Origin: Kiritimatiellia bacterium
Lineage (GTDB): Bacteria > Verrucomicrobiota > Kiritimatiellia > RFP12 > UBA1067
Reading direction: 5' to 3'
DNA length: 64,000 bases
NCBI GenBank assembly: GCA_050949565.1
Contig: JBMNFY010000017.1
Coordinates: 1,431,299 to 1,495,298 of the forward strand
The notes beneath the pieces are model-generated. The model was not told where the DNA came from. It saw nothing but the letters and a program-made list of their open reading frames with translations, and did not search any database. A program made the translations under genes and the position numbers. Below are positions 24,701 to 62,600 of the stretch, piece by piece. Every line of letters starts with the position of its first letter. Position 1 is the stretch's first letter.

Positions 24701-24809
24701 GAGGGCATCCTTCGGTCCGAAGACCAGAAACAAACAGACCTTCTGCCCGCTATTGTAGCGTGTCAGGGGGAGGGTGAACAGCGAATAACGAATTCAGTCT
24801 TTTAGGCTT

Positions 24810-34695: not shown

Positions 34696-35349
34696 TTATT
34701 GGACGGCCGCATCCGGTGCCGGTGCCGCGCCACCTTCCGGCGCACTCGGAGCCGAAGGCGTACCCGCCGCCAGCAACGCAGACTCGCCGCCGGTCCGCAC
34801 CACGCGGCCGGCAGGATCCACCAAGCGCGCCGTCACGAATACCAGCAGATTACGTTTGATCGACTGCTCAGAACGGCTCCGGAACAGACGGCCGAGGAAC
34901 GGCAGATCGCCGAGGAACGGGATCTTGTCCTCCATCGTCTTGCGGTCTTCCGTGATCAGGCCGCCCATGACGACCGTCGCGCCGTTGTAAACCGAAAGCT
35001 GTGTCTGCACCGAGCGCACATGGAAGAAGGGCTGCTCCATCGGCAGATCGTGTACTCGGCTCTCTGCGACACCATAAATGACTCCTCCAGGAGACTCGCT
35101 CCCAGACCCGCTTACGCACGGCCTCGGAATCTTTGTGCCGTAGTTCTTCCAGACCGGCTCAGAAACCACCTGCGGGTTCAGCAACAGGTTGATCATCTGG
35201 CCCTCAGCCGAAACTTCCGGCACCACCTGCAGGATCACGCCCACCTCGCGCATCTCGAAGTTCTGCGGCTCAACCATGAAGGGACCGGACACCGTAGGTG
35301 GCTGAGGAGGTACTGCTGCCGCCCGATGTATTGACCTCTTGGACTTCAA
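34696..35349 (-). pseudogene. C-terminal secretin-domain fragment of a PilQ/GspD-family secretin. It is out of frame with the upstream N-terminal part
   Basis: 'IPFLGDLPFLGRLFRS...NLLVFVTARLV' secretin signature. Overlaps the 35270..37897 ORF by 80 nt in a different frame. Confidence 0.7.
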
Positions 35350-37897: not shown

Positions 37898-37978
37898 CTG
37901 GAGAGACTCCTAATTTGTGGCAGCATCTTTTCCTTCAACAGGCAATAAAGGGTACCCATATTAGCTTGTGTGACATCA

Positions 37979-39052
37979 CTAATCAAGCTTGGGAATAACT
38001 TTTTGTTGCCCGTTAGCCTCGTTCTCTATCGTGACAACCGTTTTCTCACCATCCACGGTAAGGACGCGGTATGTTTCTTCGCGGACTTTGAACGTGCCAC
38101 CCTCCAACACCGTGTACTCGGCATTGTCGAGCGGGAACACGATCACCGCTTCAACATCTGTGACCTTTCCGCCTTCGTTGATTGTCAACGTCATCACCTT
38201 GTTGTCCGACAGTCTTTTCACTTCTACGGTCGAGACGTCCACCCGCATTTTGATGCCGGGCATATTAGGATTCTCGCGCTCGACGGATTTTGCCGTGACC
38301 GTTCCCGCAGCATAACCGGTCTCGCCGATCGGCTCATTCTCGCGCACCCAGTGGGTCCTGCGGATCGGTTCGACTTGGTTAAACACAATCTGGTTTTTGC
38401 CATCAGGCATCTTGTTGACGCCGCTGAAAATCAATGGCATGCGTTTGCCGCGCAACTCTTTCACGCGCAGGAGACTGACCAGCGGCGGATGTGATTTGGG
38501 GTCTTTCGGATCCGTCTTGGCGATGAACTCCTGAAGGTTGGTAAAGCCGTCGCCGTCGAGGTCGCCGTGGGCGTCCGCAGGGTCGTTCGGATTCAGACCA
38601 AGCGCAATCTCGATGCGATCCGGGATACCGTCGCCGTCGGTATCCAAGTCTGGATCCGCCTCCGCAGGTTTCGGTTGGCCGCCCCCGCAGAAGGGGCATT
38701 TCTCGGCGGCGTAGGGGATGGGTTTCTGGCACTCTTTAACCACGCAGGTCACACGCCGCTCCGGCATCAAAAAACCTGCCTTCTGGGCATCGGGAGTAGC
38801 AAGCTGCAACGGTGTGCGCGCCAACCGGATGGCGTCTTCAAACTCCGTCATGTCGATGGCTTTGAGGGCAGTGGAATCAGGCTTCAGCGAATCGATCCTG
38901 AGCTTGTAGTTCGCCTCTTCACGCTGCCGGGCAGGCCCTGCCGAGCGCGTGAGGTAAAACAGGGAGATGACGAGGCCAATCAGCACCACGACCACGATCA
39001 CTTTGTCGTAGTACTTGACGATGGGGTTATTCGCGTTGAATTTCAAGGCCAC
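37979..39052 (-). CDS. Membrane-anchored protein in the PilP position, with a CxxxC...CxxC zinc-ribbon-like motif and thrombospondin-type-3 Ca-binding repeats
   Basis: N-terminal TM; 'DTDGDGIPD...DLDGDGFTN'; sits between the PilO-like gene and the secretin. Confidence 0.45.
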   Translation of the reverse strand: MALKFNANNPIVKYYDKVIVVVVLIGLVISLFYLTRSAGPARQREEANYKLRIDSLKPDSTALKAIDMTEFEDAIRLARTPLQLATPDAQKAGFLMPERRVTCVVKECQKPIPYAAEKCPFCGGGQPKPAEADPDLDTDGDGIPDRIEIALGLNPNDPADAHGDLDGDGFTNLQEFIAKTDPKDPKSHPPLVSLLRVKELRGKRMPLIFSGVNKMPDGKNQIVFNQVEPIRRTHWVRENEPIGETGYAAGTVTAKSVERENPNMPGIKMRVDVSTVEVKRLSDNKVMTLTINEGGKVTDVEAVIVFPLDNAEYTVLEGGTFKVREETYRVLTVDGEKTVVTIENEANGQQKVIPKLD

Positions 39053-39055
39053 GGT

Positions 39056-40024
39056 TTATACTCCCTCAAACGAGTAGACATCGATCTCAAGTTTCACTGC
39101 CACCGGCGGTTCCAGTTCGGGATCGGTCACAATCCGTTCGACATGCGACAACTTGGCCGGATCGACAGGTTCCGCCGCGCCTTCGGCGGCAGCCTTCGAA
39201 GAACTCTCTTTTCTCTTGGCGTTGAACTGCGCCAAGGGATCGGCCGTCTTGCGCAACTCGGCTTCGGCCACAACCACAAACATATCCATGGCCGCCAGCC
39301 GGTTCAGCGCCTCAATGAGCGCAACAGGGCGCGCGACGAATTCGAGCGTAAAGCGCTGGCTGGTCCAATACGCCGACTCCGTGCGTGCGGCGGCCCCGGA
39401 TGCTCTGGCACTTCCGCCGCTGTCATCCCGGCGACGGGAACGGCGGCGCGAGGACGACTCCTGTTCCTCTTCCTCTTTTTTCACGACGTCAAAGACCTCG
39501 CGGGAAACGCTTCTCAACTCCATGATGCCGGCTGCGTAAAGCTCCTCACAGAGCTTCTCGATGATGGTCAGTTGCGCGGTCAGGCGATCCACATGTTCTG
39601 ACGCAGGCAGACTGTCGGACTGGCCAAGGTATTGGTCGAAGCCGAAGTTAAATCCGGGGGCGACAACCCTGCCCTGCACCGCACCGGCCTGAGCGGAGAG
39701 TTTGCGGACCGTAGCTTGAAGCGTCTGCTTGAAACTGGTCGGCGTTTTGGATTCAATCTGGAGGTCGCCTTTGTGAAGCTGATTGGAGGCGGTCACGAGC
39801 CAGCCTTCCAGCACCTTCTGATCCTCGCCGACGCGCGCGATATTCTCGTCGCTGGGGAAAACCTTGCCCCGGTAGATCTGCTGCAACGCCTGATATGCCT
39901 GGTCACGCTCTTCTGCCGCCCTGTTTTTGGCGGTTGTTTGGGTAAAGAGGAACCAGCCGGCAACGCCGCAGACAGCGGCCATCACGATGCCGCAAACGAT
40001 CATTATGATCTGTTGACGTTTCAT
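39056..40024 (-). CDS. PilO-like pilus assembly protein (TM plus coiled coil)
   Basis: Called from position and architecture only. Confidence 0.45.
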   Translation of the reverse strand: MKRQQIIMIVCGIVMAAVCGVAGWFLFTQTTAKNRAAEERDQAYQALQQIYRGKVFPSDENIARVGEDQKVLEGWLVTASNQLHKGDLQIESKTPTSFKQTLQATVRKLSAQAGAVQGRVVAPGFNFGFDQYLGQSDSLPASEHVDRLTAQLTIIEKLCEELYAAGIMELRSVSREVFDVVKKEEEEQESSSRRRSRRRDDSGGSARASGAAARTESAYWTSQRFTLEFVARPVALIEALNRLAAMDMFVVVAEAELRKTADPLAQFNAKRKESSSKAAAEGAAEPVDPAKLSHVERIVTDPELEPPVAVKLEIDVYSFEGV

Positions 40025-41712
40025 TTCGTTTCGGTATCCTTCGCGGCTGCTTCGGCCAACGTCGCCTCGATTGTAAACTCAATCAAATACGCCTCGATAT
40101 CCTTCTGGCCGGTGATTTTGACATCTTTCGGTCCATTGCCGAACACTGGCTGCGTCTTCAGACGGTCGCGCAACACCTCCAACGCTGTCGCACTGCGTCC
40201 GGCTTCGCGCTCTTTCTCCTCGACCGCCTTGAGCTTGTCCACCCAACCGCGTCCGACAATGCGCAATCCGGTCACAACGCCGCCCTCGTCCTTGATCGGC
40301 ACCAGTTCGGTGAGCCAGACCCCATCCAGCAGGCTTTTGCGCACGGCGTCCACGCGTTTCAGCCATGCCGTCCGCTGCAAGATCACGTCTCGCATCGCCT
40401 CGGCCTTCTTCGCGACCTCTCCTTCGGCAGCCTGCGCCTTGTTGAGCCGGGCCAGATCGCCCTTGCGCACGTCCAGCGCCGCGTTCACCTGCGCGCTCTG
40501 GGCATGGTAGAGTTCTGCGAGTTGCTTGGCGTGCACCGCCCAGATGAACAGGCAGAGCAACACGCCGGCCGCCGCCAGAGCAAAGTACGGCACGCGCTTC
40601 TTGAACGACTTGCGCTTCACGATCTCGGGCGGCATCAGGTTGATTTCAACCGGACACGCCAACGAGCGGCGCAGCGCCAATCCCACGCTCTCGGCCAACA
40701 CGAAGGCGTCTATGCTAACCCGGTCGCTATTGATCCGGTTGCTGATCCCGACGTTCTCAAACGGGTTGAGGTAGGTGACCTCAATCTGCAACTTGTCGTG
40801 AAAGAAGGTGTCCAGATGCGGCATAACCGACGAACCACCCGTCAGGAACATCCGGACCGGTGCGTTGCCGCCCTGCTGGCTACGATAAAAGTTAACGGAA
40901 CGATTGATTTCGGCGTGCAGACGCGTCACCACGTTGCGCACGATTTTCGAAACCCGCTCGGATGTCTCGTCCTCCGAGACGGTCACCCCGCCCAGCGATA
41001 CGAAAGCAACCTGCCGTTTCAATGCCTCGGCCTCTTCAAAGGAAATCTGGAAGCTCTTGGCGACCTCTTGCGTGATGGCATTACCGGCCACCGGGATGCA
41101 GCGGGTGTAAATTTTCTCGTCTTCAATAAAAATCAGATTGGTCGAACGCGAACCGATATCAAGCAACACCGTGCAGCCGTCCAACTGCGAGTAGTTGTAG
41201 CGCAGGCAGTTGTAGAGCGCCATCGGTGCCACATCGACGACCTCGGGCTCCAGCCCCATCTCCACGATGCGGTCGGTAATCTCGCGGACGTTCTCGGTCT
41301 TGGCCGCGACGATCATCGCACACTGCTCGCCCATTGTGGCGTCGCCGATGAACTGGTGGTTCCAAACGATCTCGCTCATCGGGAACGGGACGTTCTGCTC
41401 CACCTCGTACTGCACCATCTGGAGCAGTTTGTCCTCGGCGACGGCAGGCAACCGCACGAAACGCGGAAATACCATCTGACCGGAGAGCGAGAGCATCAGC
41501 GGCGCGGGGCGGATCCCGCATGTCTTCATGATCTCGCGGATAGCGGACTCCAGATTCGGACCAACACCTGTGTCGGTCTCCGGATTGCCTCCCACCTCGG
41601 CCATGCCGTAGTTGGTCAGCTCCGGCGCGCGCCCGCTCCTGACGGCGAATTCGGCCAATACAACTTTGCTCGCGCCCACATTGAGCGCGAGGATACGATC
41701 AGACGAGAACAC
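40021..41712 (-). CDS. pilM: Type IV pilus assembly ATPase-like PilM (actin/FtsA fold) fused to a PilN-like TM/coiled-coil C-terminus
   Basis: N-terminal 'ILALNVGASKV...' actin-like fold; TM 'VPYFALAAAGVLLCLFIWAV' at about aa 370, then coiled coil. Confidence 0.7.
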   Translation of the reverse strand: MFSSDRILALNVGASKVVLAEFAVRSGRAPELTNYGMAEVGGNPETDTGVGPNLESAIREIMKTCGIRPAPLMLSLSGQMVFPRFVRLPAVAEDKLLQMVQYEVEQNVPFPMSEIVWNHQFIGDATMGEQCAMIVAAKTENVREITDRIVEMGLEPEVVDVAPMALYNCLRYNYSQLDGCTVLLDIGSRSTNLIFIEDEKIYTRCIPVAGNAITQEVAKSFQISFEEAEALKRQVAFVSLGGVTVSEDETSERVSKIVRNVVTRLHAEINRSVNFYRSQQGGNAPVRMFLTGGSSVMPHLDTFFHDKLQIEVTYLNPFENVGISNRINSDRVSIDAFVLAESVGLALRRSLACPVEINLMPPEIVKRKSFKKRVPYFALAAAGVLLCLFIWAVHAKQLAELYHAQSAQVNAALDVRKGDLARLNKAQAAEGEVAKKAEAMRDVILQRTAWLKRVDAVRKSLLDGVWLTELVPIKDEGGVVTGLRIVGRGWVDKLKAVEEKEREAGRSATALEVLRDRLKTQPVFGNGPKDVKITGQKDIEAYLIEFTIEATLAEAAAKDTETK

Positions 41713-48272: not shown

Positions 48273-48371
48273 AATTGCGTTCTGCACCAAACAGGTGCGG
48301 CGAGGATCGCGATGAAAGCCAATGTTTACGCGGCTTTGCTCAAAATCCGTACGCCCAACTGCCGTTTTTAG

Positions 48372-48465: not shown

Positions 48466-48879
48466 GCAAAAGGCTGATGCTTACACATACTCGTTTTTAG
48501 GTTTTTTGACAGGATTTACATGATTAACATGATTTGACAACACTAAGGGACAGGTGTTTTGGCCACGCTAAAAATGCCCAAGTTATGGGCAAGGAAAGGA
48601 GCACGGACATTCCTGTCCGTGCCACGGGTTGGAAAACCCGTGCCCCTGTTTTAATGCCAAGTTATAGGCAAGACGATTGATTTAGACGATTCTCAAGTGG
48701 CGTGGCTCGCGGAGCGCTGGGAGGGACGAGCGTTGCTCGTCCGGGCGGCGTTTCACGCCGCCACACGGGCAAGATGCCCGTGCCACACAGCCCGGCACCT
48801 GCAACTAGGGGACAGGTATTTAGACCCCCAAAAAACCTTCGTGCCCTTTGTGCCTTTGTGTGAGAAAAAACTCCTGCCT

Positions 48880-50298
48880 CTAGCCGATTATGTCGAAGCC
48901 GAAGTACCGCACCGCATTGCGGTAGCAGATGTCTTTGACGATCTCGCCGACCCACGGGATGTCGTCGGGAATCCTGCCGTCCGTAATGTCGCCGCCCAGC
49001 AGATTACAGAGGATGCGGCGGAAGTATTCGTGGCGCGTATAGCTTAGGAAAGAGCGGCTATCCGTCAGCATGCCGACGAAACGGCTGAGCAGCCCGAGTT
49101 GCGAGAGCGCCTCTAACTGGCGCAACATGCCATCGCGCTGATCGTTGAACCACCAGCCGCTGCCGAACTGCATGCGGCCGGCCACCGGACCGCGCTGGAA
49201 ATTGCCGATCATCGTGCCGACCACTTCGTTGTCGCGCGGATTGAGCGTATAGATCACGACGCGCGGCAGGGCGTCTGCCTGCTCCAGCCGGTCAAACAGT
49301 CGCGCCATAGGCACCGCCACGTTCCAGTCGCCGATGCTGTCGAATCCGGTGTCCGGGCCGAGCGCCTCGAACATCCGAGTGTTGTTGTTGCGCAGAGCGC
49401 CGTAGTGGATCTGGGCGCTCCAATCACTGCGCGCGTCCATACTCAGCGCTTCAAACAAAAACGCCGAACGGAACGCGGCGATCTCATCAGCCGTGGCGGT
49501 GCCGCCTTGGCGTACACGCGCGAAGAGTTCGCGGATCGCGGCATCGCGGTAGGGCGTGGCATAGAGCGTATCCAGCCCGTAGTCGGAAAGACAACAACCG
49601 TTCTGCGCAAAGAAGTCGTGGCGCTTCTGCAAAGCGCAGAGCAGGTCGTCCCACGTCGCGACCGGCATGGCTGCGGCGGCGGCGAGCCGATCCAGCCACG
49701 CATTCCAAAAGGCGGGCCGGTCGATGGCCAGCGCCTTGTCCGGACGCCAGGTGGGCAGAACCTGCACCTCAAAGCCCGAGGCCTTCACCGCCGCATGGTG
49801 TTCGAGCGTGTCACAGGGATCGTCCGTGGTGCAGACCAGCCGCACGTTGCTGCGCGTCATCAGGCCACGCGCGCTGAAAGCGGGCTCTGCCAGACGTTCG
49901 GCGGTCGTCGACCAGACCGCCTCCGCCGTGGCGGGCGTCAGCAGATCGTAAATGTCGAAATAGCGCGCGAGTTCAAGCTGCGACCAATCGAAGAGCGGGT
50001 TGCGCAACAGGTAGGGCATGGTTTCGGCGAACTTCTGGAACTTCTCGCGGTCGGGCGCGTCGCCGGTGATAAAGCGCTCGTCGATCCCGTTGGAGCGCAT
50101 GGCGCGCCACTTATAGTGGTCGCCGCCGAGCCACACCTGCGCCATATTCTCCCAGCGCTTGTCTTGCGCGATCTCCGCCGGCGGCAGGTGGCAGTGGTAG
50201 TCAATGATCGGCATCTGCGCGGCGTAGCCGTGATACAACTCGCACGCCGCCGGGCTCTGAAGTAAAAAATCGTCGTGGATAAAAGGTTTTGCAGTCAT
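48880..50298 (-). CDS. uxaC: Glucuronate isomerase
   Basis: 'MPIIDYHCHL' N-terminus; about 470 aa. Confidence 0.85.
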   Translation of the reverse strand: MTAKPFIHDDFLLQSPAACELYHGYAAQMPIIDYHCHLPPAEIAQDKRWENMAQVWLGGDHYKWRAMRSNGIDERFITGDAPDREKFQKFAETMPYLLRNPLFDWSQLELARYFDIYDLLTPATAEAVWSTTAERLAEPAFSARGLMTRSNVRLVCTTDDPCDTLEHHAAVKASGFEVQVLPTWRPDKALAIDRPAFWNAWLDRLAAAAAMPVATWDDLLCALQKRHDFFAQNGCCLSDYGLDTLYATPYRDAAIRELFARVRQGGTATADEIAAFRSAFLFEALSMDARSDWSAQIHYGALRNNNTRMFEALGPDTGFDSIGDWNVAVPMARLFDRLEQADALPRVVIYTLNPRDNEVVGTMIGNFQRGPVAGRMQFGSGWWFNDQRDGMLRQLEALSQLGLLSRFVGMLTDSRSFLSYTRHEYFRRILCNLLGGDITDGRIPDDIPWVGEIVKDICYRNAVRYFGFDIIG

Positions 50299-50412
50299 GG
50301 TTCCATGGTATCCTAACGGCTGACGCCGGGTCAATGAAACCGACGTTTACTTTTTAGACCAGCCCCCTCCCACCCTCGAACGAAATCCATCCCTTGCGAT
50401 GGGATTGTGCTG

Positions 50413-52350
50413 CTATTTGGCGAAGCCTCGCACGCCCCTGACCTTGAGCTTGATTGAATAGACGCCTCTCTTGCCGCAAACATACAGGATGTTCTTGTCC
50501 GGCCCGCCGATGCAGCAGTTCCCGCACCAGAACTCCGGAATCCTGATGACGCCGAGCTTCTCGCCGTTCCGGTCCCACACGTTGATGTCTTCCGCCGTCA
50601 TGTACAGTCGTCCGTCCGCATCGATCGTCATGCCGTCGGTTCCGAACCCTATGTCGCAGAAAAGACGCTTGTCCGAGAGACGTCCGTTCTCGTCGATGGA
50701 ATACGCCCAGCATTTCCTGCCGCGGTGGTCGGCCACGTAGAGCGTCTTGCCGTCCGGCGTTCCCGTGATGCCGTTCGGTTCCACGAGGTCGTCGGTCACG
50801 CGGATCACTTCACCGTTTGCGGTCACATAATAGACCTGCTTCGTGTCCATCGGCGGTTGCGCGTATTTCGACCATTCTTTCCACCGGTAGAAGGGATCGG
50901 TAAAATACCATCCCGATCCGTCAGGACGCTCCCACACGTCGTTCGGCCCGTTGAAGTCCCGGCCGCCGAAGCCCTTGGCCAGCACCTTCCGGTCCGTGCC
51001 GTCGCGGTTCAGCAGTCGCAGTTCATTCTCGCCCATCGAGCAGGCCAGCAGCGTTCCGTCTTTCCGGAACAGCATGCCGTTGACATGTCCTGCTGGTCTT
51101 TTGAAGAGCCTGACGCCGTCCGCCTCGTTCCAGCGCAGGATCTCGTCCGACATGAAATCGCTGAAGAACAGGTCTCCGCTCACCGGGTCGACCGTCGCGC
51201 CCTCGGCGGTCTTGAAAACGTCACCGAGCGTGCGCACGTACTCCCCTTCCTCGACAATCTCCCGCATCCGCTCGCCTTCGACGACGTATTGCCACACGTC
51301 GCCGCCCTTCACGCCGCGCCACGTCGCTGGCACGTCGCTCACCGCCAGCGCGCGAAACAGGTCCGGACGCTCCCGATAGGCCCTCACGGCGGCTTCACAG
51401 ACGTTTCCACTGGCTTCGAGATAGATTTTCTCTTTGCCGCCCGGCTGCGCCATGATCTGCTGCGCCCGTTCAAGGATCAGGGATTTCTGGTTCTCGATGT
51501 CGTTGCACGCTTTTCCGCGGCAGCCGGGATCCTTCGCGAAGATCCGTCGCCCGCCGCCCCATCGGACGGGTTCGACGAACTCCACGCCGTGAATCACCTC
51601 ACGTATGCCGTTCCCGCCAAAAGGCGCGGTCGGCTCGTGCCCAAGCAGGATGCGATACTTCGGATCTGCATAGCGTTCAAAAAAAGCCGCGCTTTCGGCC
51701 GCGTTTCCCGTTGATGCGGTCGGTATCTTCCGCACGAGGTTGTCCGGCGAATAGCAGGCATCGCCGGCAATCACGTAAACCTGTCCGCACGCGAGCGGAA
51801 TCTCGACGACCGAATGCCCCGAAGTGTGACCGCCGACCCGGCGCAGGATCATGCGTCCGCCGAAAAGTTCAAGCTGCTCGTCGAATGTCGTGACCGCGCG
51901 TCCATACAGCAGTTTCTTCGCACGTTCCGCCTCCTTCGCTTGAATGTAAACGCGCGCGTCGGGAAATGACGCAAGAGCCCCGATGTGGTCGTCATGGTGA
52001 TGCGTGATAAGGCAGTCGGTAATGGTTTCGGGCGCGATGCCGTTTTTCCTGAGCAATTCGTCGGGGCGGATGAAATGCTCGGCCGTTCGCCCGAGGAAGA
52101 AAAACTTATCGCACCCGACGTCGACGAGAATGCGGCGTTCGCCGAAATCAATGAAGTGGAACAGGAGCGATATCGTCTGCAGCTTCTCCTTTGATCCGCC
52201 CGGAAAGATCATGTTCTCCGGCAGGTCGAACTCGCCATACTTGCAGGTCCAGAGGCGCGGTTTCGGCGCATCGTTCTCACCGTGCGACATGCCAAGGAGC
52301 GGATAAAGGCCGCTCAGCGAAACAAACAAAAACACAAGCACTGTTCTCAT
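50413..52350 (-). CDS. Secreted fusion protein: an N-terminal MBL-fold metallohydrolase (HxHxDH) and a C-terminal SMP-30/gluconolactonase/LRE-like beta-propeller
   Basis: Signal peptide. 'ITHHHDDHIG' metal-binding motif. The C-terminal half has SGL-type repeats ('TDG...LYV...'). Confidence 0.65.
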   Translation of the reverse strand: MRTVLVFLFVSLSGLYPLLGMSHGENDAPKPRLWTCKYGEFDLPENMIFPGGSKEKLQTISLLFHFIDFGERRILVDVGCDKFFFLGRTAEHFIRPDELLRKNGIAPETITDCLITHHHDDHIGALASFPDARVYIQAKEAERAKKLLYGRAVTTFDEQLELFGGRMILRRVGGHTSGHSVVEIPLACGQVYVIAGDACYSPDNLVRKIPTASTGNAAESAAFFERYADPKYRILLGHEPTAPFGGNGIREVIHGVEFVEPVRWGGGRRIFAKDPGCRGKACNDIENQKSLILERAQQIMAQPGGKEKIYLEASGNVCEAAVRAYRERPDLFRALAVSDVPATWRGVKGGDVWQYVVEGERMREIVEEGEYVRTLGDVFKTAEGATVDPVSGDLFFSDFMSDEILRWNEADGVRLFKRPAGHVNGMLFRKDGTLLACSMGENELRLLNRDGTDRKVLAKGFGGRDFNGPNDVWERPDGSGWYFTDPFYRWKEWSKYAQPPMDTKQVYYVTANGEVIRVTDDLVEPNGITGTPDGKTLYVADHRGRKCWAYSIDENGRLSDKRLFCDIGFGTDGMTIDADGRLYMTAEDINVWDRNGEKLGVIRIPEFWCGNCCIGGPDKNILYVCGKRGVYSIKLKVRGVRGFAK

Positions 52351-52425
52351 GGGGCTCCCTAGGTTAAGTCATGTTGGGCCTTCGCCGCGTCTTTTGTCCA
52401 TTCTACAGATCTCTTTTCGAAGCGA

Positions 52426-53622: not shown

Positions 53623-53623
53623 T

Positions 53624-55105
53624 TCATCCCCTCGCAAACGGATCCCAGCCCTTGCGATAGGCCTTCGTGACATTCTTGTCGGCTTCCGCATTGTTCGTCA
53701 CATGATGGCCGTCCCACTCCAGCACCGAGCCCTTTCCGGCCACTGACGAGATGTTGCCGAGGCAGACCGTCTTCGCGAGCGGAACCGAATACTCAAAGTT
53801 GTCGTTCGCTTCGCGCTGTTCGCGGATCGCCTTGTAGAATTCGTAGAAGTGCATCGGCGTCACGCGGCGGTAGTTGAAGTCGTGCGGACGGTCCACGCGC
53901 GGGATGCACCAGCCCGCCGAACGCGGCATGAAGCGATAGCCGCCGTGATGCGTGAACCAGAGATTCGCCTTCGTGCCGACGAAAAGGACCCCGTTCTTGT
54001 AAAACGGATCGTTCTCAAAGCCGTTTGCCTTCTCGACCTCGAGAACCTTCGGCGGGATATTGAGATGCTCGCGCTTATGGGGCATACCGAACTTGTTGAC
54101 GAATTCCTTCGTGTAGGGCACGCCTTCGTTGAGTCCGTCCCACCAGTGCATCGTCACCTCGTGGCCGAACTTCGAGGTCGGATAGTGGAACTCGAACGCA
54201 TCGCGGAAGCCCCAGGCGCCTTCAAGCGCGAACTGCGCATCGTGACACGTCACGCGATCGGGATCCTTGAGGCCGAGCGCCCAGAACGCGACATCCATGA
54301 TGTGCATGCCGAGGTTGCCGATCGACCCGTTGCCATAGCCGATCCAACTGTGCCAGCCGTGCGGATGCATGCCGTCCTGGTCAGGAGTTTCTGGGTAGTA
54401 GTCGCAGATGGGCGAGCCGCCGCACCAGAGATCCCAGTCCATCCCCTTCGGCGGCGGAGCGGCCGCGGGACGCTGGTAGATGGAATTACAACGGTCGTCG
54501 TAAGCCCAGACCTCCTTCACCTCTCCGAGATTCCCCTCGGCGATGCGGTCGACACAGTACTTCATTGACGGGAAGGAGTGTCCGTACGTGCCGCACTGCG
54601 TCACGATACCCGGACGCTTACGCGCCTCGGCGAGGATGAGGTCGCATTCGGCCACTGTAAGACAGAGAGGCTTGTCGAGATAAACGTGGATGCCGCGGCG
54701 CAGCGCCATCACCGCCGGCAGCGTGTGCTGATGGTTCGGGGTTTCAACGACGATGGCATCGATCTCGTCACCCATCTGATCAAACATGTCCTGATAGGTG
54801 GAGAAGCGCCGCGCGGACGCGAAGTTCGCCTTGTCTGCGGCACTGCACGTCTTGGCGACGAGCTTTTCAAGAATGTCGAAACGGACCGGATCGGGATCGA
54901 CGATCGCAACGAGATTTTCGCAGAGAACCCCGTCGATCATACATCCCGTCTGCAATCCGCATCCGATCAGCGCGACGCGGATTTTCGCGCCCTTGGCGAT
55001 CTGGCGGTTACGCGAGAGGCCGAAGCCTGCGCAACCGATATTAAAGAGCGGCAAGGCCGAAGCCGCCGCGACGCCCTTCAGAAGATTCCGTCGATTGGTG
55101 TTCAT
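53624..55105 (-). CDS. Tat-secreted Gfo/Idh/MocA-fold protein, GH109-like (NAD-dependent glycosidase candidate)
   Basis: Tat motif 'NRRNLLKGVAAASALP'; 'ALIGCG' Rossmann motif; about 490 aa, typical of GH109. Confidence 0.6.
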   Translation of the reverse strand: MNTNRRNLLKGVAAASALPLFNIGCAGFGLSRNRQIAKGAKIRVALIGCGLQTGCMIDGVLCENLVAIVDPDPVRFDILEKLVAKTCSAADKANFASARRFSTYQDMFDQMGDEIDAIVVETPNHQHTLPAVMALRRGIHVYLDKPLCLTVAECDLILAEARKRPGIVTQCGTYGHSFPSMKYCVDRIAEGNLGEVKEVWAYDDRCNSIYQRPAAAPPPKGMDWDLWCGGSPICDYYPETPDQDGMHPHGWHSWIGYGNGSIGNLGMHIMDVAFWALGLKDPDRVTCHDAQFALEGAWGFRDAFEFHYPTSKFGHEVTMHWWDGLNEGVPYTKEFVNKFGMPHKREHLNIPPKVLEVEKANGFENDPFYKNGVLFVGTKANLWFTHHGGYRFMPRSAGWCIPRVDRPHDFNYRRVTPMHFYEFYKAIREQREANDNFEYSVPLAKTVCLGNISSVAGKGSVLEWDGHHVTNNAEADKNVTKAYRKGWDPFARG

Positions 55106-55179
55106 GTTCCCGCTCCTTTTGATGCTCATGTTACCATCTTCTTTCCGGGATTTCATCCTCAACCTCATGCCGAACAGCA

Positions 55180-55484: not shown

Positions 55485-58400
55485 GTGAGCGCTGTCTCGG
55501 CAGTGGATTCTGTTTGGATTGGAGGTGCCACAGGCTCGTGGACAGACGCCGCCAACTGGTCGGACGGCGTGCCGCAAGCCGCGTCCGACACGGCAACCTT
55601 CAACACCCCGGCGGTTGTCACGATCCCGGCAAGCATCACGCTGAAAACGATCTTCGCCAATGCCCCGGCCACCGTCACGGTCGCGGCGGGTGCAACGCTC
55701 GCCCTCTCGAACGGCGGCGGCGATATTCTGGTCGCCAGTGCGGACTTCATCCTCGGCGGCGACGGCGACATTACGGTCTCGCGCAACGGCACGTCCACCA
55801 CCGATTTTGCGAATATCAAGCCAGCGGCAGGCACCACCCTCACAATCGCCGCCCGCATCACCGGCGTGGAGGGTTCGGGCGTCGAGTTGAACGCGGCGGG
55901 TACCCTGCTGCTGACGAATCCCGGCAACTCCTTCACAGGGACAACCCGCATCTCGAGGGGCAACGGCACCGTCGTGTTCACCGATCCCGCCGCGCTGGGC
56001 GTGACGGCCGTGCGCTCCGACGGCAGCCCGTCCAAATTCGTCTACACCGGCACCTCGCAAGCCACGCTAACGCTCCCCGTCCAACTCAGCGCCGGCAGCA
56101 CGTCGTTCGAAAACGCAGGCGGCGGTCCCTTGACCTTCAGCGGTGCCATCGCCCCCATTTCCTCCGGCACCAAAACGCTGACCTTCAGCGGTACGCAGAC
56201 CAACATCCTCAGCGGCACGCTCTCCAACGGCACCGGTGCCCTGAATGTCGTCGTAGCAGGCGGCGGCACGCTCGTTTTCTCCGGTACGGCCACTGACAAC
56301 GCCTTTACCGTCAACGAAGGCGGCACGCTGGCAGTCGGTCCCGGCGCGACCTTCAACACCACCTTGCTCACTTGTCAGGCAGGCAGTACCCTAGCGTTCA
56401 ACCCGGCGGCGGCAGACAATTTTGCCGTCACCCTGCCGCTGACCAACGCGCTCAACGGTGCCGGTGTCCGCTGGTTGATCCCGAACGCCCCCTCTGCTTC
56501 GACCGTCGCCGTACCGACGCTCGAACGTGTCACAGGTGCCACTCTGGACGTCGTGGCTCCGGCGCTGGGCACCCCTTCCAACCGACTCGTGATCCAGAAC
56601 CTGACCCCCGGCCCGCTGCCCGCCTGGTTCACCGTCAACGGCCAGCCCGCCGTTTATGATGCCGCGCTGGGCGTGTTGGCCGCGAGCGCCACCGGCCCGA
56701 CCGTTTCCCTGACAGCGCTCGGCCCTTCGGTGATCCCGGACGACGCGACCGCCGCCGCCGTCATCGACGCCGCCGGCACAGCGGGCGGCATCACGCTTGC
56801 CGCTGATCCCACGCACCTCTTCTCGCTCACGCAACAACATGCGGACAATCCTGCGGCCGTCGACCTCGGCGGGCAGACCCTCGCCGCTTCACTTGTTGCC
56901 ATCGACGCGAACGGCAACAACCTGACACTCGCCAACGGTACGCTGACCACGCCCTCCGCCCAGACCCCGCCCAGCGGCGCCGCCGTGCTGCCCACGCTTC
57001 CGGCCGCCCCGCTGGCCTGGTACGACCTCGCCGACGCCGCGACCGTCACCACCGATGCCGACGGTCGTATCACACGGGTGGCCAACAAAGGCTCGCGCGG
57101 TAGCGAGTTGGACGCCGCCGTGCCCGGCGACCGTATCGGACCGCGCTATGTCCCGGGGGCGGTCAACGGACTCGGCGTCGCGCGGGCCGACGGCATCGCG
57201 CCGCCGCAGGGCCTCGCCTCGCTTGGCACCCCCGGCATCTCCGGTAAGGCCCCGCGCACCACCTTTTTGGTCGCAGCGCGCCATCCCACCTCGCGAAACA
57301 ACTTCTACGCCCTCTATCTTGGTTCCGATGCCGGCAACAACCAAGACTTCACCACCTGCGAGCGCTATTACGTCACGTCCTTCTCCACCAAGGACAATGA
57401 CCTCGACATCACCACGCCCTCGCCCGCCGGGCATAATGTACTGACCTTTATCTCGGGCCTCAACGACATACCGGACGCCGGCGCGGGCTATCGCAACGGC
57501 GTGCTGCTCGGCACCAAGACCTTCGCCTTTGCCACGGTCGACGCCCCCATCCACCTGCTGCACCGCCCGAACACCGCCGCCAATTTCTCGGGGCCCGGCG
57601 ATGTGGCCGAAGTGCTTGTCTTCGACTACACGCTCTCGGACACCGACCGCGCGGCCGTCGAAGCCTACCTTATGCAGAAATGGCGGATCACTGCGCAACG
57701 CGATGAGACGTTGCTGGCATTGCGTAACGACAACCCAGACGCTGAACTGACCGTCACGGCCAACGTGGCCGACGCCTACGGCACGCACCTCGCGCTCGCC
57801 AAGTCCGGCCCCGGCAACGTGACGCTTGGTGGTCCGCTCGACTTCACCGGGCCACTCCTGATTCAGGACGGATTTCTCACGTTTGACATACCCGCCGATC
57901 GCTCCGCTGTCGTGAACGCGGCCATCAGCGGTCTCGGAACGCTGTGCAAGACCGGGGCCGGTGGCCTGGCCCTCTCCCTGCCCAGTCCCTTCTCGGGCGG
58001 TACCCTTATCCAGGGCGGCACCCTCTACCCCGGACACAACGGCTCGCTTGGTAGCGGTCCCGTCTCCATCGCGAACGGCGGCGCGCTGGATATCGCCAAC
58101 GCGCCGGCCACCGCCAACCCCGTCACAGGTACCGCGTCCATCGCCAATCCGATCACAGCGGAAGGCACCGGCCCGGACGGCTTGGGCGCCCTGCGCCACA
58201 GCGGCGGCGTCAGCCAGCAGAACGCCTTCAGGAACGTGGCGCTCTCAGGTGACACGGCCGTCTATTCGGCCTCGCGCTTCGATGTGCGCGGCGGCGCCTT
58301 CGATTTCGGCGGCCACGCGCTGACCGTCAACGGCGGCGGCGAATTCTCCATCGTGCAGTCGGCGGTCTCCAATGTGACCGCCGCTACTTCCGTGCAGATC

Positions 58401-61400
58401 GCCGACGGCATGTTCCGCTTTGAGCAGAGCGACTTCCAAGGCTCGGCGGCCACGGTCGCCGACGCCGCCGCCGGCGCGGGCGTCTGCCTGTATCAGATGA
58501 CAGCGCCCCTGCTGTGGTCGCTGAATCTTGCGGACAACGCCTATTTCCGCGTCAACAACGGCAACATGGACACCAATCTGAATGTCTGGGCCGGGCCGGT
58601 GACGCTCGCCGCAGGCACGTCGCGCCTCAATGCCCTGCCCGGCGGAACCGCCGCCATCACCGGCGCCGTCGGCGGAGACGGCGGCCTGCTCAAGGAGGGC
58701 GAAGGCTGGTTCTGGCTCTTCAACCCGGCCAACACGTACGCCGGCGCCACCACCGTGACACAGGGCAACCTCTACGCCGTCGCGCCCGGTACACTGGGTG
58801 CGCAGGCCGTCGCGGGCCTCACCGTTTCCGACACCGGCGCCTTCATCGCCCGTGTCGCCTCCGGCACCTCCGCCGACGGCTTCAGCCACGCGCAGCTCAC
58901 GGCCCTGGCCGATACAACGTTCTCCACGGCACCCGCCTCCACCGCCCTCGGCTTCGACACCTGTTACGAGGATTTCGCCTTCACGAGCGACTTCCCGTTC
59001 ATCGGACTGAAAAAACTCGGGACGCACACGCTCAGCCTCACGGGCAGCGCTCCCGATCTGGGTCCGGTCGATGTGTACAACGGGGAACTCGACCTGACCG
59101 CCACCGGCAACCACGCGCTGCACACCTATTCGGTCGCCGTCGGCGCAGCACCCGACGCCTCCGCACGCGCCGTCCTGCGACTGGCCGGCACCGCGCTCAA
59201 CACGGATGATCCCGGCTACAGCCGGACCGGTCCGGCGCTGCTCGTCGGCGCGGCATCCGACTCCCGCGCCATTCTGCATGTCGGCGAGGGCGCCGTCGCC
59301 AACGGACGGCTGCTCGTCGGCAACGGCACCGGCTCCGCCGGCGCCGTCTATCAGACCGCAGGGGTCGTGACCAACACGGGCGGCACCGCCAACGACAGTC
59401 GCATCGGCGAAAACGGTTTCGGTTATTACCGCCTCGACGGCGGCGAACTGGCCAACAAGGGCTATGTCCAGCTCGGCCGCAACAGCGGGGCCACGGGTAT
59501 CATCGAACAGCGTGGCGGCACGCTGCGTATCAACACCGGTGTCGCCCCCGCCAGCGGCGTCATCGGCGACTACTACAACGGCACCCTCTCCTGCCGCGCC
59601 GGCGTGGGCATCTTCCATCTGGCGGGCGGCGTGTTCGACACAGGCGGCCACTCCCTCCAGCTCGGCGAGTGGGCAGGTGAGAACAACTACTCCAACGGGT
59701 TCGCCGTGCTCACGCTCGAAAACGACGCCCAAGCCGTCGTCAACAGTGAGATCCGCCTCGCCAATCGCAACGGGGCGCCGGAAGCGTACGTCAACCTCAA
59801 CGGCGGCGCGCTGACCGCCCGCTACTTCCAAAAGGGCGGCAACAACGCTGCCGGCAATGCGTCGGCCGCCGCGATCGCCTTCAACGGCGGCGTGCTGCGC
59901 GTGGCCGATCAGGGCAATACCGCGTCGTCCTTGGTCCGTACCGGCAGCAACAACAGCCCGGCCATGCTCAACGTCTACGCGGGCGGCGCCGTGATCGAAA
60001 CGCCCGGCGCCGGCGGCGGCACCACAGCTCGACCAGCCGCTGCAGCGCGCCGTCCGGCCTCGGCGTCGCATCCGTCACCGTCACCGCGCCCGGTAGCAGG
60101 CTACATCGCGCCGCCGGCCGTGCTCTTCTCGGGCGGCAACGGCTCCGGCGCCACGGCCATCGCAGAGATCGACACCGCGACCGGTACGCTGACTGCCATC
60201 CGCGTGACCTCGCCCGGCACGGGATATACATCCGCGCCGACCGTCGTCCTGCGTGGCGGAGGCGGCACCGCAGCCGCGGCCTCGGCTGCCGTTGCCACGT
60301 CCGCCAGCGGCGGCCTCACCAAGCTCGGCACCGGCCTGCTCAACCTGGCCGCCGCCAACACCTACACCGGCCCCACCATCGTCTCCAACGGCACCCTGCG
60401 CCTCGCGGCCGGCAACCAAACCCTCTCGCCGGCCAGCGCGCTCACCCTCGCCGGCGGCACGCTGGATCTGGCGGCGCCACGGTCACCAACTTCCAGCCCG
60501 TGGCCATCGAGAGCGGACGCCTCGTCAACGGCAGCCTCTCGGCCCAGTCCTTCACCAAGACCGGCCCAGGCACGGCCACCCTCACGGCCGCGCCGGTGGT
60601 TCCATCGCCCGAAGCCCTTTTCCAAAGTTACGTACGGACCCTCGCTCCCGTGGCGCTGGTACGACCCCTCGGACTCGTCCGCCGTCACCCTCAACGGGGC
60701 AGGGCGCGTCGTTGCGCTCGCCAACAAGGGCACGCGCGGCGCCGCCCTCGACGCCGCCCCCACGGCCGCGCCCAACCTCTCCAACCCGCCTCTCCTCGCC
60801 ACCGGCACGCTCTCCTACGCCGCCTCTGGCCTGCCCATGCTCAAGATCGACGCCAACAATACCGGGCTCGTCTCGACAGAAGCCCTCGGCATCACCGGCG
60901 CCGTCCCCCGTACGGTTGTCACCGTCCTCACCCGCGAGTCCGACACCACCGCCGCCTACACCTGCTTCGGTGCCGCCTCCGCCGGCCAGATGTGGGAAGT
61001 CGGCGACCGCGCCGACAACTCTTCCGTCGTCATTGGCGGCTACTCCGACTTCGACCTGAGCATGTCGCCCCGGCCCACGGCCAAGGTCGCCCACGTCGTC
61101 TATTCCCAGCTCACGACCGCCAAAAAATCGGAGGCCTGGCGCACCGGCGACGGCCAGAATTACAATTCCCTGACCACCGCCGGGGACTTCAACACCGCCG
61201 ACTCGCGCTTCGTCATCGGCAACCGCATCGACGCCGGCAAGACCACGGCGCGCGGCGAGATCGGCGAAATCCTCATCTTCGACCGCCTTCTCTCTGCTGG
61301 CGAACGCGAGCAGCTCATGGAGATGCTCCGGCAGAAATGGACAACCGCCGAAGGCTTGGCCGAGCCGGAAGACGCCGCCGAGCCCGTCACCGTCGCCGAA

Positions 61401-62600
61401 GGCACACTGCGGCTCGCGCCCGGCGCGGAGGCGATCGCGGCCCTCGCGCCGACCGTCTGGTATGACCCGTCCGATCCCGCCACCGTCACCACCGACGCCG
61501 CCGGACGTGTCACCGCCCTCGCCAACAAAGGCACGCGCGGAACATCCATGGATGCCGGTATCCAGCCCAACTACCAAGGTCCGCTGCTGGTGACCGACGC
61601 CGACTCCTACTCCGCAGCCGGACGACCGATGCTCAAGATCGACAGCAACACCACCGGCCTCCGTTCCGCCTCCAACACCGGCATCAGCGGCGCGATGCCG
61701 CGCATCTTGATCGCCGTGCTCTCGCGCGATGTCGGAACCGGATCGGACGACCAGCAGGCGGTCGTCGCCTTCGGCAATCAGAGCGCACCCCGCGCGATGT
61801 ACGAGTTGACCGATCGGGCGTTCGGCAACTGTTTCGGTAACAACAGCGACGATCTTTCCATCTCGCCGGTGCTCCCTCCGGCCGCCGCCAACGTCTACAT
61901 GATGGAAGCCACGGCGGCCGACATCATCACCGGCTGGCGCTCGGGAGGCGTTCCCTCCAAGGTCAGCAAAGTGCTGGGCGGCGACTGGGTTACGGTCGAC
62001 ACGCCGATCTGCCTCGGCTACCGGCCTCACACTCACCGCACCACGTTCCGCGGCCAGATCGGCGAGGTGCTGCTCTTCGACCGGCTGCTCAGCGAACGGG
62101 AGCGTGCCGACGTCGAGGACTACCTCGTCAACAAATGGACGCGGGCGGATGGCGCGGACGGCCTCTTTGACGGTGCGGTGTTCGATGTCGCCGCCGGTGC
62201 CACGCTTGACTTGGGTGGTGCGCGTTCCGGTGTCACCGTCACTGGCAGTGGCACGCTGGCGAACGGCACGCTCGGCGCGGGCTTCATCATCAGTCCCGCC
62301 GGTGATGACGCGATCGGCGAGCTTGCGCTGAACGGCGTCACCTTCGGTGCGGGTGCAGAATACCGCCTGACCGTCCTCGACACGGCCAGTGATCGCCTGT
62401 TGGTTGACGGCGACCTCAGCGCCCTGACGGTCGTGCCCGCCACCGCTGCGGAACTCACCGGCACCAGTTACGTCATTGCGACCGGTGCCATCACCGGCAA
62501 GCCCGCGCTCAGCGGCTTCCCGGAGAAGTTCAAGGTGATCCAGCAGGGTAATGACCTGCTGCTCACCAGTATTGGGGGCACGGTTCTGATGCTGCGCTGA
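55485..62600 (+). CDS. Giant surface protein (2371 aa) with many autotransporter-associated beta-strand repeats and three LamG/ConA-like domains
   Basis: Repeated 'G.LTL.G.NTYTG.T.V..GTL' modules. Three '...VLVFDYTLSDTDRAAVEAYLMQKW'-type LamG endings. GTG start with no signal peptide; see the start-site finding. Confidence 0.75.
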   Translation: MSAVSAVDSVWIGGATGSWTDAANWSDGVPQAASDTATFNTPAVVTIPASITLKTIFANAPATVTVAAGATLALSNGGGDILVASADFILGGDGDITVSRNGTSTTDFANIKPAAGTTLTIAARITGVEGSGVELNAAGTLLLTNPGNSFTGTTRISRGNGTVVFTDPAALGVTAVRSDGSPSKFVYTGTSQATLTLPVQLSAGSTSFENAGGGPLTFSGAIAPISSGTKTLTFSGTQTNILSGTLSNGTGALNVVVAGGGTLVFSGTATDNAFTVNEGGTLAVGPGATFNTTLLTCQAGSTLAFNPAAADNFAVTLPLTNALNGAGVRWLIPNAPSASTVAVPTLERVTGATLDVVAPALGTPSNRLVIQNLTPGPLPAWFTVNGQPAVYDAALGVLAASATGPTVSLTALGPSVIPDDATAAAVIDAAGTAGGITLAADPTHLFSLTQQHADNPAAVDLGGQTLAASLVAIDANGNNLTLANGTLTTPSAQTPPSGAAVLPTLPAAPLAWYDLADAATVTTDADGRITRVANKGSRGSELDAAVPGDRIGPRYVPGAVNGLGVARADGIAPPQGLASLGTPGISGKAPRTTFLVAARHPTSRNNFYALYLGSDAGNNQDFTTCERYYVTSFSTKDNDLDITTPSPAGHNVLTFISGLNDIPDAGAGYRNGVLLGTKTFAFATVDAPIHLLHRPNTAANFSGPGDVAEVLVFDYTLSDTDRAAVEAYLMQKWRITAQRDETLLALRNDNPDAELTVTANVADAYGTHLALAKSGPGNVTLGGPLDFTGPLLIQDGFLTFDIPADRSAVVNAAISGLGTLCKTGAGGLALSLPSPFSGGTLIQGGTLYPGHNGSLGSGPVSIANGGALDIANAPATANPVTGTASIANPITAEGTGPDGLGALRHSGGVSQQNAFRNVALSGDTAVYSASRFDVRGGAFDFGGHALTVNGGGEFSIVQSAVSNVTAATSVQIADGMFRFEQSDFQGSAATVADAAAGAGVCLYQMTAPLLWSLNLADNAYFRVNNGNMDTNLNVWAGPVTLAAGTSRLNALPGGTAAITGAVGGDGGLLKEGEGWFWLFNPANTYAGATTVTQGNLYAVAPGTLGAQAVAGLTVSDTGAFIARVASGTSADGFSHAQLTALADTTFSTAPASTALGFDTCYEDFAFTSDFPFIGLKKLGTHTLSLTGSAPDLGPVDVYNGELDLTATGNHALHTYSVAVGAAPDASARAVLRLAGTALNTDDPGYSRTGPALLVGAASDSRAILHVGEGAVANGRLLVGNGTGSAGAVYQTAGVVTNTGGTANDSRIGENGFGYYRLDGGELANKGYVQLGRNSGATGIIEQRGGTLRINTGVAPASGVIGDYYNGTLSCRAGVGIFHLAGGVFDTGGHSLQLGEWAGENNYSNGFAVLTLENDAQAVVNSEIRLANRNGAPEAYVNLNGGALTARYFQKGGNNAAGNASAAAIAFNGGVLRVADQGNTASSLVRTGSNNSPAMLNVYAGGAVIETPGAGGGTTARPAAAARRPASASHPSPSPRPVAGYIAPPAVLFSGGNGSGATAIAEIDTATGTLTAIRVTSPGTGYTSAPTVVLRGGGGTAAAASAAVATSASGGLTKLGTGLLNLAAANTYTGPTIVSNGTLRLAAGNQTLSPASALTLAGGTLDLAAPRSPTSSPWPSRADASSTAASRPSPSPRPAQARPPSRPRRWFHRPKPFSKVTYGPSLPWRWYDPSDSSAVTLNGAGRVVALANKGTRGAALDAAPTAAPNLSNPPLLATGTLSYAASGLPMLKIDANNTGLVSTEALGITGAVPRTVVTVLTRESDTTAAYTCFGAASAGQMWEVGDRADNSSVVIGGYSDFDLSMSPRPTAKVAHVVYSQLTTAKKSEAWRTGDGQNYNSLTTAGDFNTADSRFVIGNRIDAGKTTARGEIGEILIFDRLLSAGEREQLMEMLRQKWTTAEGLAEPEDAAEPVTVAEGTLRLAPGAEAIAALAPTVWYDPSDPATVTTDAAGRVTALANKGTRGTSMDAGIQPNYQGPLLVTDADSYSAAGRPMLKIDSNTTGLRSASNTGISGAMPRILIAVLSRDVGTGSDDQQAVVAFGNQSAPRAMYELTDRAFGNCFGNNSDDLSISPVLPPAAANVYMMEATAADIITGWRSGGVPSKVSKVLGGDWVTVDTPICLGYRPHTHRTTFRGQIGEVLLFDRLLSERERADVEDYLVNKWTRADGADGLFDGAVFDVAAGATLDLGGARSGVTVTGSGTLANGTLGAGFIISPAGDDAIGELALNGVTFGAGAEYRLTVLDTASDRLLVDGDLSALTVVPATAAELTGTSYVIATGAITGKPALSGFPEKFKVIQQGNDLLLTSIGGTVLMLR

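Follow-up and report, generated by a model that had tools for sequence, protein, structure and literature searches.

Exported lactonases have been described beside sugar-oxidising members of the Gfo/Idh/MocA enzyme family. In Caulobacter, CC1224-CC1225 place a gluconolactonase in one operon with a GFOR-type oxidoreductase that is exported by the twin-arginine translocation (Tat) route (PMC4628093). The 3-keto-glycoside pathway of Bacteroides and Alistipes uses periplasmic Gfo-type enzymes whose tightly bound NAD(H) is recycled internally (bioRxiv 10.1101/2024.03.25.586180). Here we describe a locus with features of such systems in a 64,000-nucleotide stretch of DNA from a Kiritimatiellia bacterium (contig JBMNFY010000017.1, positions 1,431,299 to 1,495,298), referred to as the window. 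Its central gene, termed the fusion below, has 645 codons (window positions 50413..52350, minus strand). Judged from its sequence, the product is an exported protein with two unrelated lactonase-type folds, an N-terminal metallo-beta-lactamase (MBL) domain and a C-terminal SGL beta-propeller, both with complete metal sites. An earlier note on this DNA had placed two Gfo/Idh/MocA genes and uxaC alongside it, and this was borne out: the Gfo pair (Gfo1 and Gfo2) lies upstream of the fusion and uxaC downstream. The architecture, in which an AiiA-type MBL domain, a connector without detectable relatives and an SGL propeller follow one another, is new; the superfamilies and the predicted chemistry are known.

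The fusion starts at an ATG and contains no internal stop codon. This start (M1) has a Shine-Dalgarno-like motif, GGGAG, 4 nt to its 5′ side, and no such motif accompanies the alternative start, M21. The same uninterrupted open reading frame (ORF) was found, at 98.6-100% identity and in the same Gfo1-Gfo2-fusion order, on a JGI metagenome contig (L002), on two contigs of metagenome-assembled genomes (MAGs; L007 and L008) and on three further metagenome contigs (L090, L091 and L092). Since the ORF is intact in seven independent assemblies at ≥98.6% identity, a missed stop or frameshift that splits the fusion into two genes is excluded, and the two folds share one polypeptide as the earlier note had claimed. 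The GC content of the gene, overall and at third codon positions (GC3), is similar to that of its neighbours; the MBL part has a slightly lower GC3, 0.70, than the 0.77-0.81 of the remainder.

The MBL half resembles the AiiA-type lactonases. Pfam Lactamase_B (PF00753) matches residues 66-237 above its cut-off (E = 2.8e-13, 50.7 bits against 22.7). The HxHxDH motif reads H117-H-H119-D-D121-H122, and the ligands H117, H119, D121, H122, H175, D197 and H238, together with Y200, are invariant in 48 aligned members of the family. A profile of these 48 members aligns the ligands and Y200 to the AiiA motifs SHLHFDH, GHSPGH and DASY; D197-A-C-Y200 of the fusion falls on D-A-S-Y, with the Tyr three residues past the bridging Asp. 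We take the AiiA equivalents to be H104, H106, D108, H109, H169, D191 and Y194. An intact motif of the AHL (N-acyl homoserine lactone) lactonase type had been noted earlier, and the alignment upholds this, with HxHxDH complete, the AiiA-type ligands all aligned and none of them missing. AlphaFold was run on two overlapping halves of the fusion. The model of residues 1-380 has a confidence (pLDDT) above 93 across residues 31-240, and Foldseek matched it to AiiA structures 2a7m, 2br6 and 5eht at E ~1e-16, with a TM-score to the target of 0.72-0.78. Further matches were all MBL-fold lactonases: GcL, AhlX, 4-pyridoxolactonase and 8x78, an AHL lactonase of Pseudomonas poae. The half remains below every NCBIfam equivalog cut-off for AHL lactonases, scoring 36.2 bits against 390 for AttM (AttM/AiiB), 30.9 against 375 for AiiA, 22.1 against 360 for AidB, 22.0 against 425 for YtnP and 20.1 against 475 for AhlS.

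The C-terminal SGL beta-propeller named by the earlier note is confirmed by Pfam, by its ligand columns and by fold. The Pfam SGL model (PF08450; SMP-30/gluconolactonase/LRE) covers residues 382-624, again well above its cut-off (E = 9.6e-39, 133.9 bits against 26.3), and Arylesterase also matches weakly within the same region. By sequence, the best PDB matches of the half are 3e5z, a putative gluconolactonase (E = 2.7e-31), and 3dr2, the gluconolactonase XC5397 (E = 4.3e-19). Residues E383, N470, N526 and D572 align to E48, N134, N191 and D242 of 3dr2, which we take to be its Ca ligands at a divalent-metal site; across 54 sequences each of the four positions is either invariant or conserved to 90% or more. 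The model of this half has a pLDDT above 94 and Foldseek TM-scores of 0.90 to 3e5z and 0.86-0.87 to 3dr2. The next matches are Rpa3624, a broad-range lactonase, SMP30 and the xylonolactonase XylC. Catalytic competence as metal hydrolases is very probable for both domains.

The earlier note had also called the protein secreted, and an export signal is indeed predicted at its N-terminus, as judged by eye from hydropathy. In this putative Sec signal peptide a single basic residue (R2) precedes some 17 residues of hydrophobic core, after which the sequence turns polar. The Kyte-Doolittle mean over 11 residues is 2.0-2.5 at residues 1-6 and drops below 0 from residue 16, and the AlphaFold pLDDT is under 50 at residues 1-15 and 19-21. 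Cytoplasmic members of the MBL family, e.g. P0061 and P0179, have starts that align with residue 31 of the fusion. With a Tat signal on Gfo1 and a lipoprotein signal on Gfo2, all three proteins of the cluster are predicted to be exported.

Such fusions were expected to be uncommon, and the searches agree. A phmmer search with the whole fusion against 1.84 billion cluster representatives returned 9,998 matches; within the best 150 of these (E ≤ 6e-37), all two-stretch matches that were checked proved to be tandem SGL-SGL proteins. A fusion of MBL and SGL totalling more than about 144 bits would have been among the matches listed. A local search of 273 fetched proteins found both domains together only in P0001, a 99% copy, and a pattern scan of one genome per species (185,579 species) recovered it at full length from L007 and L008 alone. 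Neither the 1.84 billion representatives nor the 185,579 species genomes thus yielded a second example. L007 (5 kb) is binned as 'Candidatus Hydrogenedentota' and L008 as 'Kiritimatiellia'; the two contigs are near-identical (99-100% protein identity), and a binning error probably accounts for one of these MAG assignments. Since P0002, the sole further protein with a closely related MBL domain, likewise comes from Kiritimatiellia, a host in that class is the most likely. A single diverged copy of the fusion (86-89% DNA identity) is present on the Logan contig L087 (L087:1731-2595). In it, residues 145-363 are joined directly and out of frame to residues 509-582, while residues 1-144 and 364-508 are missing, and the copy is either a decayed pseudogene or part of a chimeric contig.

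The catalytic domains are separated by about 110-125 aa of connector, a segment that the earlier note had overlooked. Pfam gave nothing for it at E ≤ 1, and among the 273 proteins it is matched only by P0001 (near-identical) and P0007 (an 84%-identical fragment). A word-index search with the connector also gave no match; P0001 was missed too, so this search is uninformative on absence. Relative to the L087 copy, the ratio of nonsynonymous to synonymous substitution rates (dN/dS) is 0.19 in the MBL segment, 0.25 in the connector and 0.31 in the SGL segment. As the value for the connector is close to those of the flanking domains, it appears to be a constrained protein segment and not a spacer.

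Two candidate identities for the connector were considered and rejected. No fold was assigned to it from AlphaFold, as residues 280-340 have a pLDDT of 63-84 and the topologies of the two models differ (beta-alpha-beta-alpha-beta in one, long helices in the other). An origin as the relic of an alpha/beta-hydrolase (esterase), by analogy with the esterase-SGL fusions P0018 and P0077, was discarded given the lack of a Pfam match at E ≤ 1. BLASTP against P0018, P0077 and P0143 aligned little past the start of the SGL domain, leaving the esterase idea unsupported, and phmmer with filters off against 60 pre-SGL regions reached only E = 0.025 at best. Weak matches to a blade-2 motif raised the idea of a degenerate SGL repeat; an SGL hidden Markov model built from 53 homologues scored the connector at -2.5 bits, a value equalled or beaten by 314 of 1256 scored shuffles, and this idea was dropped as well.

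Relatives of the MBL half form a compact family with over 1000 members that stand alone (E ≤ 1e-10, 207-282 aa), one of which is named 'N-acyl homoserine lactonase family protein' by NCBI. Seven genomic contexts of stand-alone members were read. In three, the MBL start overlaps the preceding stop, in an operon with an AraC-type regulator alongside. One of these operons runs zinc-dependent alcohol dehydrogenase (Zn-ADH), Gfo/Idh/MocA, Zn-ADH, MBL, GH2; another Zn-ADH, MBL, short-chain dehydrogenase/reductase (SDR), NmrA-like protein, type I dehydroquinase; and the third xylose-isomerase-like TIM-barrel protein, GH39, MBL. The other four contexts are uninformative or loosely carbohydrate-related. 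One other fusion was seen for this MBL clade: P0002 (L001:145-3330), a 1061-aa protein of a Kiritimatiellia MAG, joins a GH78-like (alpha/alpha)6 glycosidase region to a C-terminal compact MBL domain of 56% identity, with a GH16 gene nearby. The SGL clade has more varied fusion partners, among them DUF6807, esterases, aldose 1-epimerase, ApbE, metallophosphatase, laminin-G/dockerin and carbohydrate-binding modules, and relatives of the SGL half adjoin a sodium:solute symporter, a cellulase or an arabinofuranosidase. P0025 (L132:4205-5794) is an exported protein with an N-terminal SGL domain and a C-terminal MBL domain of the Lactamase_B_3 type (HEHGDH), which shows that the MBL and SGL folds have been joined at least once independently.

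The first gene of the cluster, Gfo1, matches Pfam GFO_IDH_MocA (E = 9e-16, 59.1 bits) and has the same length, 493 aa, in the JGI gene call. By eye, it carries the twin-arginine motif NRRNLLKG (within MNTNRRNLLKG) followed by a hydrophobic stretch, and both the Rossmann motif IGCGLQTG and the DKP motif (YLDKP) are present. Its top NCBIfam model is BT_2158_fam glycoside 3-dehydrogenase (177 bits, where the cut-off is 750), and its top PDB matches are 8tdf and 8tdh at E = 2e-24, both deposited merely as dehydrogenases. Matches to GFOR and to aldose-aldose oxidoreductase (AAOR) are at E ~5e-6. The protein had earlier been described as Tat-secreted and GH109-like; the Tat motif is there, and assignment to GH109 was rejected, as none of 27 PDB matches at E ≤ 1e-5 bears the name GH109 or alpha-N-acetylgalactosaminidase and the protein resembles glycoside 3-dehydrogenases. 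Gfo2 bears a lipoprotein-type signal (MSTNRLKGIFGVAAMLLVGC) with the lipobox LLVGC. In place of the GxGxxG dinucleotide-binding motif it has WGIIHNHSRG, while the DKP motif is kept. Pfam GFO_IDH_MocA_C3 scores 33.5 bits, the NAD-binding domain falls under its cut-off, and the best PDB match is 5a02, the Caulobacter AAOR, at E = 3e-6. From these motifs Gfo2, possibly not binding NAD and translationally coupled to Gfo1, could be a non-catalytic or redox-recycling partner.

UxaC is a clear glucuronate isomerase (Pfam, 647.7 bits; NCBIfam PRK02925, 619.6 bits against an equivalog cut-off of 387). The gap between Gfo2 and the fusion is 75 nt and that between the fusion and uxaC 114 nt, the latter with a weak hairpin and no T-run. 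Terminator-like hairpins (48575-48623, minus strand) follow about 260-300 nt past uxaC, beyond which unrelated genes of amino-acid biosynthesis are encountered (hom, aspartate kinase, citramalate synthase). A promoter and terminator scan of the cluster gave nothing above shuffled expectation, and the one match from Rfam across 47500-56000 was sub-threshold and put down to chance. The 300 nt downstream of uxaC (48575..48840) contain a number of GC-rich hairpins along with direct repeats that are short and imperfect, such as 48542-48573 and 48804-48835 (75% identity); these may be REP-like or terminator elements. The features of the cluster are listed in Table 1.

Table 1. Genes and protein segments of the fusion cluster; positions are counted from the first nucleotide of the window.
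Feature	Position	Strand	Basis or remark
Gfo1, Tat-signal Gfo/Idh/MocA oxidoreductase, 493 aa, first in cluster	53624..55105	-	Pfam, motifs
Gfo2, Gfo/Idh/MocA-like, 398 aa	52426..53622	-	starts 1 nt past Gfo1 stop
Fusion: predicted Sec signal peptide, residues ~1-24 (MRTVLVFLFVSLSGLYPLLGMSHG)	52279..52350	-	hydropathy, judged by eye
Fusion: AiiA-type MBL-fold domain, residues ~29-240, family tail to ~258	51631..52266	-	Pfam, alignment, Foldseek
Fusion: connector, residues ~241-365 (~110-125 aa)	51256..51630	-	between the two catalytic domains
Fusion: SGL six-bladed beta-propeller, residues ~366-641	50428..51255	-	Pfam, PDB matches, Foldseek
uxaC, glucuronate isomerase, probable start near 50298	48880..50334	-	Pfam, NCBIfam

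Elsewhere in the window, a type IV pilus/secretin cluster (35270..41712; PilM-like protein, secretin) and the housekeeping genes rho, tig and clpX are found, and as these share the window the context is taken to be chromosomal and not mobile. A gene for a GH127-type beta-L-arabinofuranosidase lies at 25330..27240 (+). Two giant ORFs are present. One (55485..62600, plus strand, 2371 aa) is divergent from the cluster that begins with Gfo1 and has a PATR autotransporter-type repeat and a laminin-G-like region, within DNA of 67-70% GC; the other is at 16748..24733 (-) and encodes 2661 aa.

The function that we favour, at a probability of about 0.5, is that of a Sec-exported, periplasmic, two-headed sugar lactonase coupled to Gfo1 and Gfo2. 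The first head would be a di-zinc MBL enzyme of the AiiA type, in which a metal-activated water opens the lactone ring with Tyr200 as the oxyanion contact. The second would be an SGL propeller of the Ca/Zn/Fe type that holds one divalent ion on E383, N470, N526 and D572. The heads would act autonomously, joined by the lineage-specific connector under selective constraint. The most likely substrates would be sugar-derived lactones (aldono- or urono-, gamma and/or delta), and the heads possibly differ in the ring size or the sugar that they serve. In this scheme, the NAD-bound Tat protein Gfo1 and the lipoprotein Gfo2 would oxidise sugars or the reducing ends of oligosaccharides to lactones in the periplasm. 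The fusion, co-oriented and probably co-transcribed with the Gfo1-Gfo2 pair, would open the ring and so make the oxidation irreversible, and the sugar acids would then be taken up for cytoplasmic catabolism, which UxaC may join. We infer the lactonase activity of each head, the class of substrate, the coupling to Gfo1, Gfo2 and uxaC and the cellular location. A bifunctional uronate/aldonolactone lactonase had been suggested by the earlier note: what is retained is that the ligands and folds point to lactonases in both halves, and what is weakened is the support from the gene cluster.

Several observations weigh against this reading. Neither half of the fusion attains any equivalog-level model. 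Gfo1 resembles glycoside 3-dehydrogenases, which oxidise C3 and yield no lactone (bioRxiv 10.1101/2024.03.25.586180). UxaC is presumably cytoplasmic and its gene may have its own promoter. Moreover, the intact fusion occurs within a single species-level lineage and in a sister lineage seems to have decayed, where homology on L087 begins abruptly after an unrelated 483-aa gene without a match in the window; given this single lineage and the apparent decay in its sister, linking the two heads may give little advantage. The surroundings of related Gfo genes add to these points. A metagenome scan with Gfo2 recovered 42 loci, about 20 of which keep the tight Gfo1-Gfo2 pair (64-86% identity). In these relatives the third gene encodes a protein of about 260 aa that has no Pfam match, and it overlaps the Gfo2 stop. 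This protein is 63-86% identical among loci (L108:3490-4269, L099:7865-8650, L124:6046-6825 and at least 10 others). It is followed by variable glycosidase and esterase genes (GH5, GH39, SASA). Neither the ~260-aa gene nor a relative of it is present in the window, where the fusion occupies that slot, and the Gfo-pair relatives have no MBL, SGL or uxaC match on the stretches covered. A conserved Gfo-Gfo-lactonase synteny was thus tested for and not found. Because the relatives carry an unrelated third gene, the association between the Gfo pair and the fusion is specific to this lineage, and the weight that had been put on the gene cluster was not borne out. The ~260-aa protein ends in ...GGIGLRLRF, like the C-terminus of an outer-membrane beta-barrel.

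Other explanations were weighed against the same evidence. The least probable, in our estimate, is an exported quorum quencher, in which the MBL head cleaves AHLs in the periplasm or the environment and a PON- or Drp35-like SGL head widens the range of lactones. Among solved structures, the MBL half lies closest to AHL lactonases (AiiA, AiiB, GcL, AhlX, 8x78), the DxxY Tyr of AiiA is conserved and the NCBI family name points the same way; however, the AHL-lactonase equivalogs score just 20-36 bits against cut-offs of 360-475, the MBL family is compact (about 220-255 aa) and without a stretch of some 20 residues present in AiiA beyond the DTG strand, and its contexts are sugar dehydrogenase and glycosidase operons with no signalling genes. 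On the SGL side, the lactonase Rpa3624 of the same fold was inactive on every homoserine lactone tried (PMC9843451). It is the sugar operons of the MBL family, together with the failed equivalog cut-offs, that favour a role on sugar lactones over quorum quenching. Rather less unlikely, if still doubtful, is that one head or both lack lactonase activity and act as another metal hydrolase or lyase on glycan-derived substrates, e.g. as an esterase of uronates that are acylated or methyl-esterified, as a phosphotriesterase-like enzyme or as a step that processes what a Gfo1-initiated 3-keto-glycoside pathway produces. Both superfamilies are promiscuous, with MPH, OPHC2 and DFPase among the structural neighbours, SGL relatives are fused to esterases, metallophosphatase and ApbE, and the pathway of the glycoside 3-dehydrogenases, to which Gfo1 is nearest, requires accessory periplasmic enzymes (bioRxiv 10.1101/2024.03.25.586180). 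Yet the closest neighbours of both halves, by structure and by sequence, are lactonases, and the lactonase-specific Tyr of the MBL domain and the full gluconolactonase ligand set of the SGL domain are retained. No known 3-keto-glycoside cluster contains an MBL or SGL gene, and the word 'lactonase' is absent from the report of that pathway (bioRxiv 10.1101/2024.03.25.586180).

To a similar degree we doubt that the fusion is young and essentially neutral, a rearrangement having joined two unrelated exported hydrolase genes and displaced the usual third gene, so that the heads are independent and have no functional link to their neighbours, in an architecture that is evolutionarily short-lived. 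The finding of an intact gene only at ≥98.6% identity would fit such an origin, as would the loss of residues 1-144 and 364-508 in the diverged L087 copy, the different third gene beside the Gfo pair of relatives, the connector without homologues and the lower GC3 of the MBL part (0.70 against 0.77-0.81). Selective constraint argues otherwise: dN/dS is 0.25 for the connector, the domains are at 0.19-0.31, and all catalytic residues are retained. In addition, the gaps are short (75 and 114 nt) with no strong terminator within the cluster, the independent fusion of SGL and MBL folds in P0025 suggests that the combination recurs, and L087 is maybe an assembly chimera rather than a pseudogene. A bolder proposal, which we regard as very unlikely, is that the heads and the constrained connector work as one machine on a substrate with two different ester or lactone linkages, or on a single oxidised sugar whose delta- and gamma-lactones it would process in turn, as a hitherto unrecognised accessory of periplasmic, cofactor-recycling glycan oxidation by Gfo/Idh/MocA enzymes in anaerobic Kiritimatiellia, with the compact MBL family being sugar lactonases.

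If both heads of the favoured two-headed sugar lactonase are active, two convergent lactonase folds would be naturally combined in one exported enzyme, which would offer a comparison case in the study of lactonase specificity and, for the production of sugar acids, a candidate biocatalyst. The gene contexts also suggest that the compact MBL family, to which automatic annotation gives the name 'N-acyl homoserine lactonase family', has its role in carbohydrate catabolism. Were this true, a misleading MBL annotation would be corrected and metagenomic estimates of quorum-quenching potential lowered. The reach of the finding is limited by its restriction to one species-level lineage, by a conventional chemistry and by neighbouring genes that give weaker support than at first sight.

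Comparison with known systems places each part of the locus near a described enzyme. The AiiA-type lactonases (AiiA 2A7M/2BR6/3DHA, AiiB 2R2D, GcL 6N9I, 8X78) share the alpha-beta/beta-alpha fold, the ligands and the Tyr with the MBL half, at an identity of 18-22%. In contrast to these, the fusion has shorter loops, it is exported (as predicted) and two-domain, and its MBL family sits in sugar-catabolic operons. The SGL gluconolactonases (3E5Z of Deinococcus, 3DR2 or XC5397 of Xanthomonas, XylC 7PLB of Caulobacter, human SMP30) have the same propeller and the same four ligands at 25-27% identity, and XC5397 is exported according to its depositors, as is predicted for the fusion; here, however, the propeller makes up the C-terminal half within a larger protein. 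Amongst multidomain proteins, the tandem SGL-SGL proteins P0008-P0014 contain the same SGL clade in exported proteins (identity of 38-42% for P0008 and P0025, 33-36% for the other tandems), and P0025 has the reverse domain order with an MBL domain from another Pfam family (Lactamase_B_3/Lactamase_B_2). Fusions of this kind often have carbohydrate-active partners, P0002 being one case. None of P0008-P0014, P0025 and P0002 pairs an AiiA-type MBL domain with SGL, and none has the connector. The systems that join GFOR or AAOR to a gluconolactonase (Zymomonas mobilis GFOR, Caulobacter CC1224-CC1225) are alike in that a Tat-exported Gfo/Idh/MocA enzyme stands beside an exported lactonase. The present locus differs from them in that Gfo1 is only distantly related to GFOR and nearer to enzymes of the 3-dehydrogenase type, and in its extra Gfo-like lipoprotein without GxGxxG, its double-fold lactonase and its lineage-specific synteny.

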